Origin: an uncultured archaeon
Lineage (GTDB): Archaea > Asgardarchaeota > Lokiarchaeia > Sigyniarchaeales > SOKP01
Length of the DNA stretch: 58,443 nt
Direction of reading: 5' to 3'
Assembly: GCA_964632315.1 (NCBI GenBank)
Contig: CAZWEM010000024.1
Span: forward strand, 1 to 58,443
A program made the translations under genes and the position numbers. The first letter of the stretch is position 1, and the number at the start of each line of letters is the position of its first letter. The notes under the pieces were generated by a model. It ran no database searches. It was not told where the DNA came from and was given only the letters and a program-made list of their open reading frames with translations. Shown one piece after another: positions 22,049 through 57,735 of the stretch.

Positions 22049-22870
22049 TTAAATTGCAACATAAAGTCGACCATTGGTTTCTTTGCTTACCGAATGATCT
22101 CCACTATATTCCGCAAATTTACCGCTTAATTTTTCTCCATTCGGAAGTAATACTTCATTTACTTCGCCCATCTTTTTATATGAAGGGAGTATTCTACTCA
22201 CTTTGCCTTTAATAACAATAGTTCCTCGAGATTGATCCGCTCCAGCACAACGATCTACATCCCCTTCCACAACAATCGTTCCACCATGATTGTGTATTCC
22301 TAAGAATGAGTCAGCGCTTCCACAATATAAAGTAGGCCACTTATTTGAAGGTTTCGAACTTTTTGCCCATAACATTGATTCAATACCAACTCTCCCCTTT
22401 ACTCTAATTATTCCATTTTTCATTCCCTGCCAATAACCACGATATGCAGATCCAACGTAATGACCTGCATCTCCATTAATCTCTAATTCTCCTCCCTCTA
22501 ACATGGCACCTGCCCAATCATCAGCATTTCCGTTTACTATGATCTTTCCACTCTTCATATGATTACCAACATGCATGCCGACGTTTGAGTTTATCTCTAT
22601 CTCTCCTCCATTCATCATTTCTCCGATTCTTTTCACTTTAGAGAGATTTCCATCGATTACAATCTTAAGGTTTTTAGGATCATCATCAGATTTACCAGAA
22701 ACGGAAAAAAAGTCTCCAATACTCAGTAACTCTTTACTATGATAGATCGGAAGCTTTTTTATGTCTGCTAATGTCTTACCAGCAAAATTATTTGGAGTGA
22801 TGCTTTCTGCTTCTAATGGAAATTCTGGTTGCTTCTTTAACTTTAATTTTATCTCTGCCATTTTACTCAC
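22049..22870 (-). CDS. fwdC: formylmethanofuran dehydrogenase subunit C
   Basis: KRIGEMM.GG, repeated GxxMxxG, VGSAYRG.W.GM. Confidence 0.93.
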   Translation of the reverse strand: MSKMAEIKLKLKKQPEFPLEAESITPNNFAGKTLADIKKLPIYHSKELLSIGDFFSVSGKSDDDPKNLKIVIDGNLSKVKRIGEMMNGGEIEINSNVGMHVGNHMKSGKIIVNGNADDWAGAMLEGGELEINGDAGHYVGSAYRGYWQGMKNGIIRVKGRVGIESMLWAKSSKPSNKWPTLYCGSADSFLGIHNHGGTIVVEGDVDRCAGADQSRGTIVIKGKVSRILPSYKKMGEVNEVLLPNGEKLSGKFAEYSGDHSVSKETNGRLYVAI

Positions 22871-24215
22871 CCAATTTCTCCTTTACTTTTTCGAGTAAAC
22901 GCTCTAAAATATCATGATCTGAGAGGCATTCTCCCGGAGCATCCTTTACTTTGCGTAATCTTAAAGGTACCTTGTCCATCCTGTAAGCAGTTCCCTCACA
23001 TTCAATACCTGCAAATGCTGGTGGTAAAATGATATCCGCATATGCAGAAGTGGGAGTTTCGTGAGGTTCGATGACGATTAAAGGATGCTTAAATAAATTT
23101 TTAACTGCAGGTGCTGGAAAATTGCTTGCTGGATCTGATGCTACGATTAGTGCAGCATCTACCTCATTTTTCATTAATAAATCGACTGAAGAGAATTCAC
23201 CAGGATTATATCGTGGATAACCTTTGGAGAAATCAATGGAGTACCCAAAACCCGTATTCCACGTAAAAACTTGGTTTGCTCCGGCCACATTATAGTGCCC
23301 TCTCATGGGGCATAATAGAAATTTTGTATGATCATTCAATTCCCTCACGAGACAGATTGCAGCATCAACATTCCTGTGATGAGCAAGTGATTGTGTTAAT
23401 CCCATACCAAAAAATATGACTCCATAGTTACATGATTTTAATTTTTCTGCTAATTTTACAATATCTTCTTTTTTAACGCCTGAAATTTCCTTTTCATCAA
23501 GATCCACCTCACGCAATGTAGCCCTAATTGCATTTACTAATTCATAATCTTCATTAGGATTTACAGGAATATACAAATCAGCAATTTGAGCTGTATTCGT
23601 GTTTCGAGGATCCACTACTATTATATACCTGTCATTTCTTCCATCTTTCCTGAAATATCCTCGAACAAATTGGCTATAACGACCTAAATGTCGAGGGTGG
23701 GCATGAACAGGATTGCATCCCCAAAAAACAACTAAATCAGCCCTATTTTTATATTCTCCAAGGGTTGATAATGGAGCACCGACATCTTGGATGGCCAATA
23801 GAGATGGCCCATGACAGACTGAAGCGGTATTATCCAGAATCGAACCAAGAATTTCAGCAAGTTCGACTCCTTTTCCCTGTGCTTCACATTCGGTACTAGA
23901 AAAACCATATAATAACGGTCTTTTTGCTTTTACTAAGATGTCTGCAGCTTTATCCAAGGCTTCATCCCATGAGACTTCCTTGAATTCTCCTTTTACTCTT
24001 ATTCTTGGTTTTTCAAATCGATGCTTGCTTGGGTTTGATGAAAACATTTTTTTCGTACCAATTTGGCAAGCATTGCGTACTTCAACAATCTTATTATCAG
24101 ATACATCTATTTCGAGGTCGTCACATAGAGTTACGTTTAAAATCCGTTGGGGATTTTAATTTCCGCAAAATGGACAACACACGTCATAGACTGTCTTTAT
24201 TTTTCTTTCAACCAT
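22863..24215 (-). CDS. fwdB: formylmethanofuran dehydrogenase subunit B, interrupted by a 30-nt stop-containing insert (24132-24161); 440 aa if the insert is removed
   Basis: ATG at 24215 behind GGAGG gives MVERKIKTVYDVCCPFCG-[insert]-TLCDDLEI...NACQIG, in frame with track ORF 22863..24047 (SVCHGPS, WGCNPVHAHPRH, MRGHYNV, GTAYRMD). Confidence 0.9.
24131..24161 (-). other. 30-nt hairpin insert in fwdB (candidate BHB/BHL-type intron or recoding element)
   Basis: mRNA sense AATTAAAATCCCCAACGGATTTTAAACGTA; perfect inverted repeat TTAAAATCC/GGATTTTAA; in-frame TAA at 24158-24156. Confidence 0.7.
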
Positions 24216-24217
24216 TT

Positions 24218-24613
24218 TTATGCCTCCTTTAACATTCCTATTAACTCGATTGCACCAAGGACCTTTCCGTCTTTAACTACTTCTACTTTTGCTTTCATTC
24301 CCTTATAAGTGGGGGTACCACAAGATTGTGAGTCTGGATTTACTACTTGGTTTGCCCAAGGACCCATTGGGATGAAAATTATTCCTGGGTGAGGGCCCTC
24401 TTCCGAAATTGTAGAATAAACCATTACTTCACCATAATCAGTAATAACTTTTACTGGAGTCCCCGGTAAGCAATCTAGTTTTTTAAAATCATCTCTATCA
24501 AATGCACATATAGCTGCGGCACGAACATTTTCCATCGTAGCTTTTCCTCCCTCTAATGCGACACCTTGATTTATGGTACGTCCAGTTAATAGGATTAAAT
24601 TATTTAAACTCAT
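24218..24613 (-). CDS. fwdD: formylmethanofuran dehydrogenase subunit D
   Basis: LTGRTINQG, V.TDYGE, IFIPMGPWAN.V, GTPTYKG. Confidence 0.93.
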   Translation of the reverse strand: MSLNNLILLTGRTINQGVALEGGKATMENVRAAAICAFDRDDFKKLDCLPGTPVKVITDYGEVMVYSTISEEGPHPGIIFIPMGPWANQVVNPDSQSCGTPTYKGMKAKVEVVKDGKVLGAIELIGMLKEA

Positions 24614-25326
24614 TTCTTAGCCTCCTCCTTTTTACTCCATCGCACTTTTTTAAATCTTGCAATTAATGGAGGCCAGAAAAGTTCACTAAACTCTCCAGAA
24701 GTATTCACATCAATAATTTTAAGTTGCAAAGCTCCTGTGGGACATGCGTTATCACAAGCACCACATGCCACGCAAGCGTCAGGATCCACCACTTCGACAT
24801 TTTTAGACATTTCCCAGCCGTGTTCTGGCCTTTTAGCGATTTCTATCGTTCCAGAAGGACAAACCTCAGCACATGAACCACATCCCTTAGCACATTCTTC
24901 ATCTATTACAGATACCTCAGCTTTAGCATATTGTTTTGCTATTCTGTCATTTTTTAACATTCTTGTCTCAAATTCAAGTTTGGGAACAACTTTGTTTTCT
25001 ACAATGGGGATATCTGCTAAGTTGATGGTTTCTCCATCCTTTTTAAGGGTAAGAGCAGAAAAAGGACACATTACAACACAAGTGCCACAAAACACACACT
25101 TTTTAGGGTCATAGACCTCAGGAATGATATCTGAAGTTTCAGGAAACCTGCGACTTGCACCGACAGGACCACGAGAAATGGCTTCCTTAGGGCAAACACG
25201 AGCGCATGTTCCACAGCCAACGCATTTTTCTCTATTCAGAATCAGTTCCAAACTTTGAGTAAGAAACTGTACTTTAATATGCTCTTCAACATCAGTTATA
25301 TTTCTTGAAATTTTTGGAAATGACAT
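24610..25326 (-). CDS. polyferredoxin, FwdF-like (four [4Fe-4S] motifs)
   Basis: CVGCGTCARVCP, CVFCGTCVVMCP, CAKGCGSCAEVCP, CVACGACDNACP; lies in fwd cluster; likely start at 25326. Confidence 0.85.
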   Translation of the reverse strand: MSFPKISRNITDVEEHIKVQFLTQSLELILNREKCVGCGTCARVCPKEAISRGPVGASRRFPETSDIIPEVYDPKKCVFCGTCVVMCPFSALTLKKDGETINLADIPIVENKVVPKLEFETRMLKNDRIAKQYAKAEVSVIDEECAKGCGSCAEVCPSGTIEIAKRPEHGWEMSKNVEVVDPDACVACGACDNACPTGALQLKIIDVNTSGEFSELFWPPLIARFKKVRWSKKEEAKK

Positions 25327-25328
25327 TT

Positions 25329-25586
25329 TTATGCTTCCTCCATGCATTCAATTCTTATGGCGACTTGTGGACATGACTTTACACATACACCACATCCATC
25401 GCAATTATAATCTCTATCAGTTAAATAGATTGGTCTTGCCATTCCGTTTTGTACAAGAATGACAGCATTTTTTTCGTTCAAATAACTACTTTTTCTTAAT
25501 TGATTAAAATTAATGGGACATGAGACCACACAAACATTGCAGCCCGTACACGTGTTATGATTAATCTTCAATTTAAAAATTTGCAT
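25329..25586 (-). CDS. 2x[4Fe-4S] ferredoxin, FwdG-like
   Basis: CTGCNVCVVSCP.N and CDGCGVCVKSCP. Confidence 0.85.
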   Translation of the reverse strand: MQIFKLKINHNTCTGCNVCVVSCPINFNQLRKSSYLNEKNAVILVQNGMARPIYLTDRDYNCDGCGVCVKSCPQVAIRIECMEEA

Positions 25587-53290: not shown

Positions 53291-54646
53291 TTATTCACTA
53301 ATTCGTCCTATTACTCTAAATGGTAATGATTTATTGAATTCATCAAAATCGTAGATTCGTCTTCCATCAACGAGATTTGGACTTTTCATTAATTTTTTAA
53401 AGTAATCAGGTTTTAAATTTTTAAATTCGTCCCATTCTGTTATCAAAAATGCGCATTCAGACTCTTTTAATGCATTATCTATATCTTTGGCATATTTAAT
53501 CTTACTACCTAATTCTTTCTCCGCTGTCTCATTTGCTTTAGGATCATAACCAACAATATCATAAATTCCTCGCTTTATCAACTCATTTACCACTCTAATG
53601 CTTGCTGCTTCTCGCATATCATCCGTACCTGGTTTGAAAGCTAATCCTAGTAATGTTACTTTTTTTCCAGCCAGTTTTCCAGCTAATTCTTCGGCGATAT
53701 CTACAATATGTATTGCTTGATCATCATTAATCCCTAATACGGCCTCTAATAACCTTGAAGTATATCCTTTCGATTTAGACCATGCTTTTATTGCATTTAC
53801 ATCCTTATGGAAGCAAGATCCTCCAAATCCAACCCCAGCACCTAGAAATCTTGAACTAATTCTATAATCAAGTCCTACTCCCTTCATTACTTGACCAACA
53901 TCCACATTAGGAACCAACTCTGCAAAATTAGCAAATTCATTTGTATAGCTTATCTTTGTAGATAAAAGACAATTATTACCGTATTTTACCAATTCAGCAC
54001 TCTCTAAGTTCATTCGAAGGACGGGACAATTTTTTAAATGGTCGCCGTAAAAATATTGATAAAATTCTTGGAGCATTGAACCACTCTTTTCATTAAGCTC
54101 TCCGATAACAATTCTGTCTGGATGTAAAGTATCTTCGATACTTCGACCTTCTGCTAAAAATTCTGGTTGCATGCACAGTCCAAAATCCTTTCCTGCCTCT
54201 TTTCCAGACACTTCTGTAATAATTTTCGATACTAAACCTCTTGTAGTCCCCGGAACGACCGTAGAACGAACAACTACAAGATGATATTTCTCCTTAACTT
54301 TGAAAGCTTCTCCAATTTCTCTCGCGGTGTTTTCAATGTAACTAAGATCTATGCTCTTATCTGCTCGCATAGGGGTTCCTTGGGTAATCATGGAAATATC
54401 TGTATTGAGAACAGCTTTGACTGGATCTAATGAACATCTCAGTAATTCTGGCTTATCTTTCTTTATCTCATCCATTATTTCTTGAAGGTTTGCTTCATAA
54501 AATGGGGCAACTCCTGAATTAATCATTTCTGCCTTTTTTTCATTATGAGTTGATGCGATTACTTTAATCTCTTTTTGCGCAAAACAAGCCGCACTACATA
54601 AACCAATGAATCCAGTACCTAAAATTGAAACGCTATATTTAAACAT
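53291..54646 (-). CDS. UDP-glucose/GDP-mannose dehydrogenase family protein
   Basis: GTGFIG, STVVPGT, PEFLAEG, SAELVKY..N, GFGGSCF.KD, LAFKP.TDD.RE. Confidence 0.93.
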   Translation of the reverse strand: MFKYSVSILGTGFIGLCSAACFAQKEIKVIASTHNEKKAEMINSGVAPFYEANLQEIMDEIKKDKPELLRCSLDPVKAVLNTDISMITQGTPMRADKSIDLSYIENTAREIGEAFKVKEKYHLVVVRSTVVPGTTRGLVSKIITEVSGKEAGKDFGLCMQPEFLAEGRSIEDTLHPDRIVIGELNEKSGSMLQEFYQYFYGDHLKNCPVLRMNLESAELVKYGNNCLLSTKISYTNEFANFAELVPNVDVGQVMKGVGLDYRISSRFLGAGVGFGGSCFHKDVNAIKAWSKSKGYTSRLLEAVLGINDDQAIHIVDIAEELAGKLAGKKVTLLGLAFKPGTDDMREAASIRVVNELIKRGIYDIVGYDPKANETAEKELGSKIKYAKDIDNALKESECAFLITEWDEFKNLKPDYFKKLMKSPNLVDGRRIYDFDEFNKSLPFRVIGRISE

Positions 54647-54905: not shown

Positions 54906-56198
54906 ATGAATATGACAGATTTAAGAAAAAAATTAGAGATCCCAAAAGACGCTCTTAAATCGGTAAATGATTTTTTACTTGACGAGACTAATCCTTTAAT
55001 TAATCAGTTATTTTCTGTTATTGATAAGTATGGTGGAATAGAGGAGATTAACAAAAAAGCTGAAGAAGCAAGAAAGATTGATAATCTTTTTGGAAAAGTT
55101 AATGCAATTAATCCCGATTATGTCAAAGATTTAGAATGGTTGATAAAGGTTCGAGATAATCATTCATTCATTAGCGTTACAGACTATAGAAAAAAAATCT
55201 TAGGGGATAAAATATCTGAAATAAGCTTTAATGATGATTTTGCTGTTACATTAGAATTAAGTGCTTGTCAATATTTCCCATTTCTTATGGATATTATCAA
55301 GGATGCTGTTGAAAATCACAAATTAATGCCAGCCAGAATCATAAGAGTACGAAATATGAAAGAACAAGAGCAGGATGGTGATCTATCGGCTATGGCTGCT
55401 GCGATGCAAATTATTGGAGCCTCATGGGTTGAAACACTAGACACCAAGGGAACTGCTCTTGGTCCAGATGGCTTACCAGTTAATGTACATTTAGGCGGCC
55501 CAGAAACGATAACTGGATATTTTGGTGGAGTTGGTGAACCAAATGATTTTGCTTTGAAATGGATTGACGAATTTCTCTATTACTATACTAACTATGGTAT
55601 CAAACAGGTACTAAATGTAAATCCAGGAACCGTGCTATTAGGATATTTTATATACAAGCTTGGAATAAATAACGAATTTAAAATCTCTGTATATATGGGA
55701 AATGATAATCCTTATGCGTGTTTATGGACATTATTGACCGCAAAATTATTTGCTCGGAAGGATGGCACCAGTCCTTTAATTGGGTTTAATTTATCAAATT
55801 CAGTGAATAATAAGACTATTGAAATGGCTGCATACATAAGAAAACCATTCGGATTTGAAGATGTCGTTCGTTTGGAACATCATATTACAGAAACATGGAA
55901 AAGTATTGTACGACAACCTTATGATCGCAGGGATGAATTATTAGAATTAGCAACAAAAGTTAAAAATGTAAGTGCAAAGCATGAAGGCGGCAATATTCCT
56001 GTCGAAGAAAAGAGGGAACATCCTACAGACATACTGGAATATTTTGTACCTAAGGAAGAACTGAAGGAAGCTGGGTTATGGGATTATTTGCGCATCAATC
56101 ATCTCGATCGAAATGATGCTGTAAATTCCACCGCTGAAGCTCTAACTAAAAAGGGACTGTCATTTCTTGCGGCTAAAAATCTACATTATTATAAATAA
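54906..56198 (+). CDS. hypothetical soluble protein, enzyme-like
   Basis: 430-aa ORF with motif-like segments (ETLDTKG, HLGGPETITGYFGG, LEHHITE, AKHEGG); 20 nt upstream of the aldolase-Fae gene. Confidence 0.75.
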   Translation: MNMTDLRKKLEIPKDALKSVNDFLLDETNPLINQLFSVIDKYGGIEEINKKAEEARKIDNLFGKVNAINPDYVKDLEWLIKVRDNHSFISVTDYRKKILGDKISEISFNDDFAVTLELSACQYFPFLMDIIKDAVENHKLMPARIIRVRNMKEQEQDGDLSAMAAAMQIIGASWVETLDTKGTALGPDGLPVNVHLGGPETITGYFGGVGEPNDFALKWIDEFLYYYTNYGIKQVLNVNPGTVLLGYFIYKLGINNEFKISVYMGNDNPYACLWTLLTAKLFARKDGTSPLIGFNLSNSVNNKTIEMAAYIRKPFGFEDVVRLEHHITETWKSIVRQPYDRRDELLELATKVKNVSAKHEGGNIPVEEKREHPTDILEYFVPKEELKEAGLWDYLRINHLDRNDAVNSTAEALTKKGLSFLAAKNLHYYK

Positions 56199-56218
56199 AT
56201 ACAAAGAGGAATAATAAA

Positions 56219-57706
56219 ATGGGTAAATTTGATTTTAGACCGATAGGCGTGATGCCAGCAATGGTCACGCCGTTTAATAAGGATGAATCTATTAATGAGG
56301 AACAAATACGGAACTTAGTTAATCATTTTATAGAGCAAGGTGTGACTGGATTAGTCCCTTGTGGTACAACTGGAGAATTTTGCAACATGACTTTTGAAGA
56401 ACGATTGAAGGTCATTGAAATAGTAGTAGATGAAGCCAATGGGAGAATCCCCGTCATCGCTGGAACGGGAGAGACAGGAACTAAATTAGTGATTGACGCG
56501 AGTCTTGCTGCGACTGATATTGGAGCTGATGCAGTTATAATAGTAACTCCCTATTATCTCAAGCCAAAAGCTAAGGGATTATACGATCATTATTCTACCA
56601 TATGTGAAAAGACAGACATTCCTATCGTGCTTTATAACATTCCAGTATGTACTGGAGTCGAGCTCCCTTGGACAGTAGTAGAAGATCTTGTTGATTTCGA
56701 AAATATCGTAGCGATTAAAGACTCAAGTGGAGATTATAAATACCATTCTGCATTATTAGAAAAAGTTAGTGATAAAATCTCAGTGTTAATCGGGTGGGAT
56801 GAACTCGTGTTAGGATCGCTTGCAGGAGGTTCAGCAGGATGCATTTTAGGCTCTGCAAATGTAATTCCAAAGATTTGGTTAGAAATCTATGATCACGTGA
56901 AAAACAATCGATTACAAGAAGCACAAGCACTCCAGAAAAAAGTCCAAAAAATTGCTCGCATGCTCATCAATTCTGGAGCATTAGGAGCAAAGGAATGCCT
57001 CAATTTAATGGGAGTTCCTGCTGGATATACTAGATCACCCATTATAATGGGTGATGTCCTTTCATATGAGTTTAGGGATGAATTTCGAGTGGAATTAGAA
57101 AAACTAGGATTAATTGAAAAGAAGGAAATCAAGTTTGAAATTGGGGAAAAAGAGCTTACAAGCAGATTTTTTGCCGTTGGAGTGACTCCAGCGAAAATCT
57201 CTGATTTCAAATTAAAAGTAGGCGAATCCTTAGTTGGTGATCGTGCAGAATTAGCGCATGTCGATCTTTTAATTGGTGAGAAAGATGGTCCAGTTGGAGA
57301 TGCTTACGCTCGAGCCTTAACACACCCTGCGAAAGGTAAAGAAGGCTTACAAGTTATTCTCGAGCCAAATATGCAAGTTAAACCTGCTACAGTGATGATT
57401 CCAACCGTTAAAGTGACTTCTTTAAGACATGCAAGCCTTACTTATGGACCTGCTCAAGCCGCCGTAGCTAAGGCTATTATGCAATGCGTGGAAGATGGTA
57501 TTTTGCCAAAAGAAGCATCGGAAGATTTAGTGATTATTGCGAATGTTTTCGTTCATCCCAGTGCAAGTAGTCGTAAAAGGGTTTTTATAAATAACTTTAA
57601 GGCTACTAGAAATGCCATTCGTAAAGCAGTAGAAGGTTTACCGACAGTAGAAGAAGCTCTGGAAAATAAAGAGAATGCCCGGCATCCTTTAAGAAATGAT
57701 CCTTAA
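56219..57706 (+). CDS. DapA/NAL-family class I aldolase fused to formaldehyde-activating enzyme (Fae)
   Basis: N-terminal GTTGE, PYY, LYNIP, IKDSSG; C-terminal VGE.LVG...E.AH.DL.IG.K.GPVG, KP.T...P.V, GPAQAAVAKA, VFVHP, ATR.AI, HP. Confidence 0.9.
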   Translation: MGKFDFRPIGVMPAMVTPFNKDESINEEQIRNLVNHFIEQGVTGLVPCGTTGEFCNMTFEERLKVIEIVVDEANGRIPVIAGTGETGTKLVIDASLAATDIGADAVIIVTPYYLKPKAKGLYDHYSTICEKTDIPIVLYNIPVCTGVELPWTVVEDLVDFENIVAIKDSSGDYKYHSALLEKVSDKISVLIGWDELVLGSLAGGSAGCILGSANVIPKIWLEIYDHVKNNRLQEAQALQKKVQKIARMLINSGALGAKECLNLMGVPAGYTRSPIIMGDVLSYEFRDEFRVELEKLGLIEKKEIKFEIGEKELTSRFFAVGVTPAKISDFKLKVGESLVGDRAELAHVDLLIGEKDGPVGDAYARALTHPAKGKEGLQVILEPNMQVKPATVMIPTVKVTSLRHASLTYGPAQAAVAKAIMQCVEDGILPKEASEDLVIIANVFVHPSASSRKRVFINNFKATRNAIRKAVEGLPTVEEALENKENARHPLRNDP

Positions 57707-57735
57707 CAGAACGGTTTTTTTTAATTCTATTCTTT

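Follow-up and report, generated by a model that had tools for sequence, protein, structure and literature searches.

A DapA-family aldolase fused to formaldehyde-activating enzyme: a candidate route for hydroxymethyl exchange between a 2-oxo acid and methylene-pterin in Asgard archaea and other sediment lineages

The fusion gene and its distribution

What would a class I aldolase of the DapA family do on the same polypeptide chain as formaldehyde-activating enzyme (Fae)? The question is raised by a gene in the window (the whole stretch of DNA analysed here, 58,443 nucleotides), which lies on contig C24 of a 4.45 Mb genome. An earlier note, made from the letters alone, had read this gene as a single open reading frame joining the aldolase to an apparently complete Fae domain, and had proposed that formaldehyde released or fixed by the aldolase is channelled to or from methylene-H4MPT.

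The reading frame (56219–57706, plus strand) encodes 495 amino acids with no internal stops, and the proposed architecture is confirmed by profile matches. Residues 10–276 (56246–57046, +) form the class I aldolase barrel of the DHDPS/NAL family (Pfam DHDPS, E 9e-77). The Fae domain, expected from about 57200, begins at nucleotide 57218 and comprises residues 334–491 (57218–57691, +), matching 158 of the 159 positions of the Pfam Fae model (E 7e-57); on TIGR03126 the protein scores 189.8 bits, above the curated cut-off of 118. Both domains are confidently predicted in the AF2 model (pLDDT 88.8, pTM 0.85), and the linker between them (residues 277–333; 57047–57217, +) is modeled as a helix followed by a β-hairpin.

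A gene for a 430-aa protein (54906–56198, +) ends 20 nt ahead of the fusion, and the downstream gene is convergent. The 20-nt gap contains GAGGA, which resembles a ribosome-binding site (56206–56210, +), and a run of eight T past the stop codon (57715–57722, +) is a possible archaeal terminator, both as read from the sequence. In 56 Loki loci the operon has a divergently oriented UDP-glucose dehydrogenase-like gene beside it (53291–54646 of the window). This neighbor is absent in the other lineages examined and probably reflects lineage synteny.

The fusion is widespread. Every one of the top 120 homologs is a full-length PF00701+PF08714 protein (481–505 aa, 80–96% identity), and 76 GTDB loci encode the fusion, so it did not arise as an artefact of assembly. 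The homologs nearest to it carry the name Promethearchaeota (Lokiarchaeia), and the fusion is conserved in Asgard archaea, Bathyarchaeia, and bacteria of the Anaerolineae class; no full-length copy was found on plasmids. Most of the named homologs are called 4-hydroxy-tetrahydrodipicolinate synthase in the databases, and, should the reading developed below be true, a widespread DapA mis-annotation would be corrected in Asgard archaea, Bathyarchaeia, and Chloroflexota. One record labelled as a Candidatus Nanopelagicaceae bacterium (L016) shows the Loki-type gene order at 87% identity and is probably mis-binned or mis-named. No paper on the fusion or on its upstream partner was found, and none that deals with both Fae and dihydrodipicolinate synthase, in a search covering few subscription papers.

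The active site of the aldolase domain

The aldolase motifs listed in the earlier note are in place: GTTGE at residues 49–53, Tyr139, and the Schiff-base Lys167, together with Cys144 (nucleotides 56648–56650, +) instead of Arg138 of DHDPS. Residues Thr50, Thr51, Tyr113, Tyr139, and Lys167 are invariant in 120 of 120 homologs, and so is the cysteine; arginine is absent from this position in every distant fusion examined. In DHDPS, Arg138 binds aspartate semialdehyde (ASA) (PMC3188589). Two residues past Lys167, Ser169 takes the place of DHDPS Ala163, again in 120 of 120 homologs, and the equivalent Ser198 of 4-hydroxy-2-oxoglutarate aldolase (HOGA) binds the 4-hydroxyl group of the substrate (PMC3188589). 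The Gly-Asp-Asp and Asn248 regions are also altered relative to DHDPS. With the Thr/Tyr/Lys set kept, Cys in place of Arg138, and Ser169 present, the site looks like that of a 4-hydroxy-2-oxo-acid aldolase. HOGA, a retro-aldol enzyme of the same family, likewise has Ser two positions past the Lys and no Arg138, whereas its Asn78, which binds the distal carboxylate, corresponds to Thr51 in the fusion (PMC3188589). Only the serine of the HOGA Ser198/Asn78 pair is therefore present, and no hydroxyproline context is seen.

The database label would make the protein an ordinary DHDPS with a passenger Fae. The nearest structures to the barrel are indeed those of DHDPS (38% identity to PDB 2YXG; the AF2 barrel overlays DHDPS with an rmsd of 1.5 Å), with a common pyruvate-binding motif and catalytic Tyr and Lys, and the barrel passes the TIGR00674 DapA model with 236.5 against a cut-off of 206.15. 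However, a separate DapA of this genome reaches 339 bits and adjoins dapB and lysA on contig C22, while no lysine-pathway gene is found among the recurrent neighbors of the fusion. With Arg138 lost in all fusions examined, Ser for Ala163, a different Asn248 region, a C-terminal Fae, and no dap context, the fusion aldolase is probably not DHDPS, as the earlier note had suspected, and the database reading seems scarcely credible. The same genome also encodes a true Fae-Hps (530 on NF009833) and a canonical PanB; the needs for lysine, ribose, and CoA are thus met by other genes. The fusion falls well below every cut-off of the curated HMMs for NanA, archaeal KDG aldolase, KdgD, and HpaI, and nothing was found that points to KDG or HOG, both named earlier as candidate substrates.

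The Fae domain and the tandem copies

By alignment to the M. extorquens Fae (1Y5Y), His347 (nucleotides 57257–57259, +) corresponds to the catalytic His22, and it is kept in 120 of 120 homologs. The residues that presumably bind the pterin in Fae are Asp24, Leu53, Lys71, Thr73, and Gln88; at these positions Asp349 and Gln413 are kept in the fusion, while Gln378, Thr396, and Lys398 differ, and the C-terminal His489 is kept as well. Most fusions have Thr396 where Fae and Fae-Hps carry a lysine, presumably one that binds pterin, and the pterin site of the fusion may be altered by this replacement.

The active site of Fae is formed between subunits. Tandem copies of the fusion are found in several Asgard families, in some metagenome loci, and in bacteria. 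In each such pair one copy retains the His/Asp motif of Fae and the C-terminal His motif but has lost the Leu and Gln motifs, and its partner shows the reverse pattern; because the Fae site lies between subunits, such a pair would rebuild one site. In two Asgard genomes (G138, L127:8049-11063; G102, L128:8347-11232) the His-bearing copy is also without the Schiff-base Lys, which its His-less neighbor keeps. From the complementary Fae halves and the Lys/His split between the copies, both the aldolase and the Fae activity appear to be under selection. In the single-copy gene of the window, His347, Asp349, Gln413, and His489 are all in one chain.

The Lys-to-Thr change, the loss of the Fae His in some copies, and the many bacterial carriers without Mch would also suit a protein whose aldolase splits some different 4-hydroxy-2-oxo acid, with a longer aldehyde as product, and whose Fae domain is only a scaffold or a general formaldehyde scavenger. 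We consider this quite unlikely, as the His-less copies sit beside a His-bearing copy and retain the other half of the motifs, and the replacement by a PanB paralog (below) implies transfer of a C1 unit. A close parallel in architecture is the archaeal Fae-Hps (NF009833, PRK13307), also Fae joined to an aldol enzyme, with formaldehyde exchanged between a C–C bond and the pterin carrier; in the present fusion the aldolase is N-terminal, of the DHDPS family, and of the Schiff-base type. On NF009833 the fusion reaches 159.7, short of the cut-off at 274, with the Fae part alone matching and no Hps.

The upstream TIM barrel

The 430-aa gene ahead of the fusion is its obligatory partner. It precedes the fusion in 71 loci, with a median gap of 20 nt, and belongs to a family of at least 8000 relatives. 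Elsewhere among the Asgard lineages this place is taken by a U32-like gene of 315 aa. Across 75 Asgard genomes, which are kin and give a description of the pattern, not an independent statistical test, each of the 35 fusion-bearing ones has a single barrel type, never both, whereas among the 40 without it a barrel is found in 5 and neither type in 35. In the family to which the window belongs, fusion and barrel occur together in 8 genomes and are both missing from 9. The profiles of the two types align weakly, over 222 columns, and pairwise BLAST between them is not significant. In two genomes of one genus, G020 (430-aa type, L228:8559-9869) and G031 (315-aa type, L229:7968-8924), they occupy one syntenic spot, adjoining a class III aminotransferase, and this shared position suggests that the 430-aa and 315-aa barrels have the same function.

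The 430-aa protein has no match in Pfam, NCBIfam, or PDB sequences, and an Atlas feature search returned noise. It folds as a TIM barrel. By shape its best matches in the Atlas are clusters labelled U32 (TM by target 0.70–0.75), and a possible kinship with U32 is also suggested by hhalign (E 2e-4, probability 48%); the U32 member 5D88 (Mk0906) gives a Z of 11.4, not above other barrels. As many barrel families score alike in the fold searches (class II aldolase, CutC, BKACE, U32), the function cannot be assigned from the fold. The TIM barrel is common to the partner and the U32 family (PF01136; Mk0906 5D88, TrhP), which differ in that the partner has no Pfam match and no conserved Cys cluster; an invariant Cys that could serve as an Fe-S ligand was found in neither barrel type. 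The conserved motifs (Glu, Arg, Lys, His, and Lys-x-Glu, with no Cys) suggest that the barrel may perform metal-assisted enolate chemistry. Complex prediction for fusion and barrel gave a score of 0.00, evidence neither for nor against binding. The present reading offers a first functional handle on these at least 8000 unnamed proteins.

Short contigs from close relatives reach into the barrel gene in three metatranscriptomes, and into the fusion as well in two of these three; the contigs give neither strand nor level and may originate from DNA. In family f7 (L225–L235) the barrel gene is separate from the fusion, follows a gene for an ECF S-component, and is often transcribed divergently from the gene of a threonine-synthase-like protein that includes a PadR domain. 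In G081 (L220:7085-9414) a divergent DHDPS-family protein without Fae precedes the barrel gene, and Mch was not found there. A Glu/Leu/Phe/Val-dehydrogenase-like protein with CBS domains adjoins the barrel gene in several loci (among them L185:8275-10143 and L143:1268-3112), and the genome under study has a homolog (54% identity) near an aldehyde:ferredoxin oxidoreductase gene (G000:C45:9013-10866). This protein may serve as amino-acid dehydrogenase in the route.

Replacement of the fusion by a PanB paralog

PanB exchanges a CH2OH group between a 2-oxo acid and methylene-H4F. In bacteria whose close homologs bear the name Anaerolineales, the barrel gene follows a PanB homolog, and the pair either diverges from folD, fhs, and a formate dehydrogenase gene or lies inside Wood-Ljungdahl clusters. 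The pattern was counted in a set of 60 Anaerolineae-class genomes, in which barrel-positive bacteria were over-sampled and the genomes are related, so that its numbers cannot serve as independent tests. A close barrel gene is present in 40 of the 60; the PanB paralog is found in 20 of these 40, Fae in 16, and both in none. Among the 20 barrel-negative genomes, two have the PanB paralog and none has Fae. The aldolase-Fae reading frames were confirmed in 10 of the 16 Fae-positive genomes, and two of the 20 barrel-linked PanB proteins are at just 58% identity, one of them frameshifted. On contigs, each of the two barrel types is found next to each of the two C1 enzymes, so that all four combinations occur. 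Because the fusion and a PanB with a known CH2OH transfer replace each other in this mutually exclusive way, the fusion most likely does the same job, namely hydroxymethyl exchange of a 2-oxo acid with methylene-pterin. The proposed net reaction is thus like that of PanB (PF02548), yet the family and the mechanism are different, PanB being a metal-dependent class II enzyme whose natural substrate is ketoisovalerate. Judged from its residues and neighbors, the fusion would resemble Fae-Hps and PanB in its working while being a member of neither, and it departs from DHDPS both at Arg138 and in context.

The alternation with a PanB homolog, and chemistry of the same type, could also mean that the fusion is a non-homologous replacement of PanB in ketopantoate (CoA) synthesis. 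This is highly improbable: a canonical PanB is encoded in this genome, neither panC nor panE was identified among the genes that recur beside the fusion, and in G151 the barrel-linked PanB is additional to a separate panB-panE-panC operon. We rejected the idea on the canonical PanB and the operon of G151.

All 21 copies of the barrel-linked PanB have Ile at the position of E. coli Val214 and Leu at that of Ile212, positions that shape the pocket in the E. coli enzyme (PMC7610986). With these positions altered, the barrel-linked PanB may take a 2-oxo acid donor smaller than ketoisovalerate. These proteins make up a second PanB clade of the Anaerolineae class (L242 / L267–L287), distinct from panB-panE-panC and labelled as ordinary PanB.

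The homoserine link and the identity of the 2-oxo acid

In G003 and G058, two Asgard genomes that lack both Fae and Mch, the barrel gene shares an operon with genes for an aminotransferase, for homoserine dehydrogenase, and for an aldehyde:ferredoxin oxidoreductase (AOR). The homoserine dehydrogenase family of these operons scores above the equivalog cut-off, and the operon enzyme is the sole homoserine dehydrogenase of either genome; Asd was not found in the two with a bacterial-type model, which scores archaeal Asd weakly. The same set lies beside the barrel in metagenome loci (homoserine dehydrogenase in 18, AOR in 15, aminotransferase in 13). These operons in fusion-less Asgards point to a homoserine-type C4 skeleton. 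The keto acid of homoserine is 4-hydroxy-2-oxobutanoate (HOB), which equals pyruvate plus formaldehyde. HOB is the simplest metabolite that joins all three modules (fusion, PanB paralog, and homoserine operon), and is derived here from genomes without the fusion. The idea of an aldolase working with a C1 carrier, as put forward in the earlier note, is strengthened by the PanB exclusivity and the homoserine dehydrogenase operons, with HOB as the best candidate.

The coupling of formaldehyde to pterin could also serve another 2-oxo acid, 2-oxobutyrate or hydroxypyruvate, the chiral product being epimerised or isomerised by the barrel. HOB has no stereocentre, and an epimerase would make sense in the sugar-acid operons and before the 4-hydroxy-2-oxovalerate aldolase gene where distant barrel relatives are found. 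Yet homoserine dehydrogenase accompanies the closely related barrel types, as in the 18 metagenome loci, which fits an unbranched C4 compound, and pyruvate is the usual substrate of DHDPS-family aldolases. A non-pyruvate acid is therefore held to be improbable. Among the loci of the distant relatives (L132, L215, L219), the sugar-acid operons include a dehydratase, a lactonase-like protein, and Dak kinases, and the aldolase context is dmpF-dmpG in a Mycobacterium plasmid.

Proposed reaction

From architecture, residues, and gene co-occurrence, we favor, with some reserve, the reading that the fusion is a two-part pyruvate:methylene-pterin hydroxymethyltransferase, interconverting HOB with pyruvate and methylene-pterin. 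Lys167 would form a Schiff base with HOB, retro-aldol cleavage would yield formaldehyde together with the enamine of pyruvate, and at the Fae site between subunits the formaldehyde would be condensed with the tetrahydropterin; every step would be reversible. The cleaving, catabolic direction is modestly favored because the alternatives end in the oxidation of formate or of semialdehyde, though these genes can run either way. The U32-like barrel would act on the C4 product or substrate. It is possible, if doubtful, that it forms HOB by β-elimination and hydration from a 2-oxobutanoate substituted at position 4, methionine's keto acid being one example. Methionine γ-lyase-like genes show no exclusion pattern, and none scores above the cut-off. 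In one sediment study the Asgard OTUs took up no 13C-methionine, which argues weakly against a methionine route (PMC11905757). The tree of the aldolase domain, with one outgroup, a long branch, and an open base, neither places the family nor orders the events.

Taken as a whole, the genes may form a native HOB-centred pathway of anaerobic sediment microbes, a reading to which we give slightly less than even weight. The new barrel enzyme would feed or drain HOB, and three interchangeable modules would link it to methylene-pterin and pyruvate (the aldolase-Fae fusion or the PanB paralog) or to homoserine and aspartate. In the synthetic homoserine cycle, pyruvate and formaldehyde are joined to HOB, which is then aminated to homoserine; the HOB aldol step there is a side activity of RhmA with free formaldehyde, HOB is termed non-native, and its aldol chemistry is described as non-native and engineered (PMC8879981). 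Descriptions of such a reaction were found for engineered bacteria only. The reaction proposed here is the same, but would be dedicated, natural, and carrier-coupled, and, if run forward, would be the native counterpart of the C1 fixation step of that cycle. If true, it would provide a further link of C1 to C3/C4 metabolism in sediment lineages that are abundant, and a dedicated HOB aldolase drawing on carrier-bound, not free, formaldehyde would be a missing part for synthetic methylotrophy.

The C1 carrier and the fwd genes

The H4MPT pathway is present in the host, with Mch on contig C1 and fwd genes in the genome; FolD is present too, and Fhs was not found in this genome. With Mch and Fwd present and Fhs not found, H4MPT is most likely the carrier in this archaeon. 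Of the 16 bacterial fusion carriers, 13 are without Mch, so the carrier may be H4F in bacteria. The H4MPT proposed in the earlier note is thus the likeliest carrier in this archaeon but need not be the carrier elsewhere. That note had also tied the fusion to the Fwd genes of the window; the fwdC, fwdB, and fwdD-like genes at 22052–24613 lie ~31 kb from the fusion, outside its conserved neighborhood, and their presence is incidental. The cluster extends over 22052–25347 with a ferredoxin-type gene, and the FwdB reading frame as called begins at model position 39.
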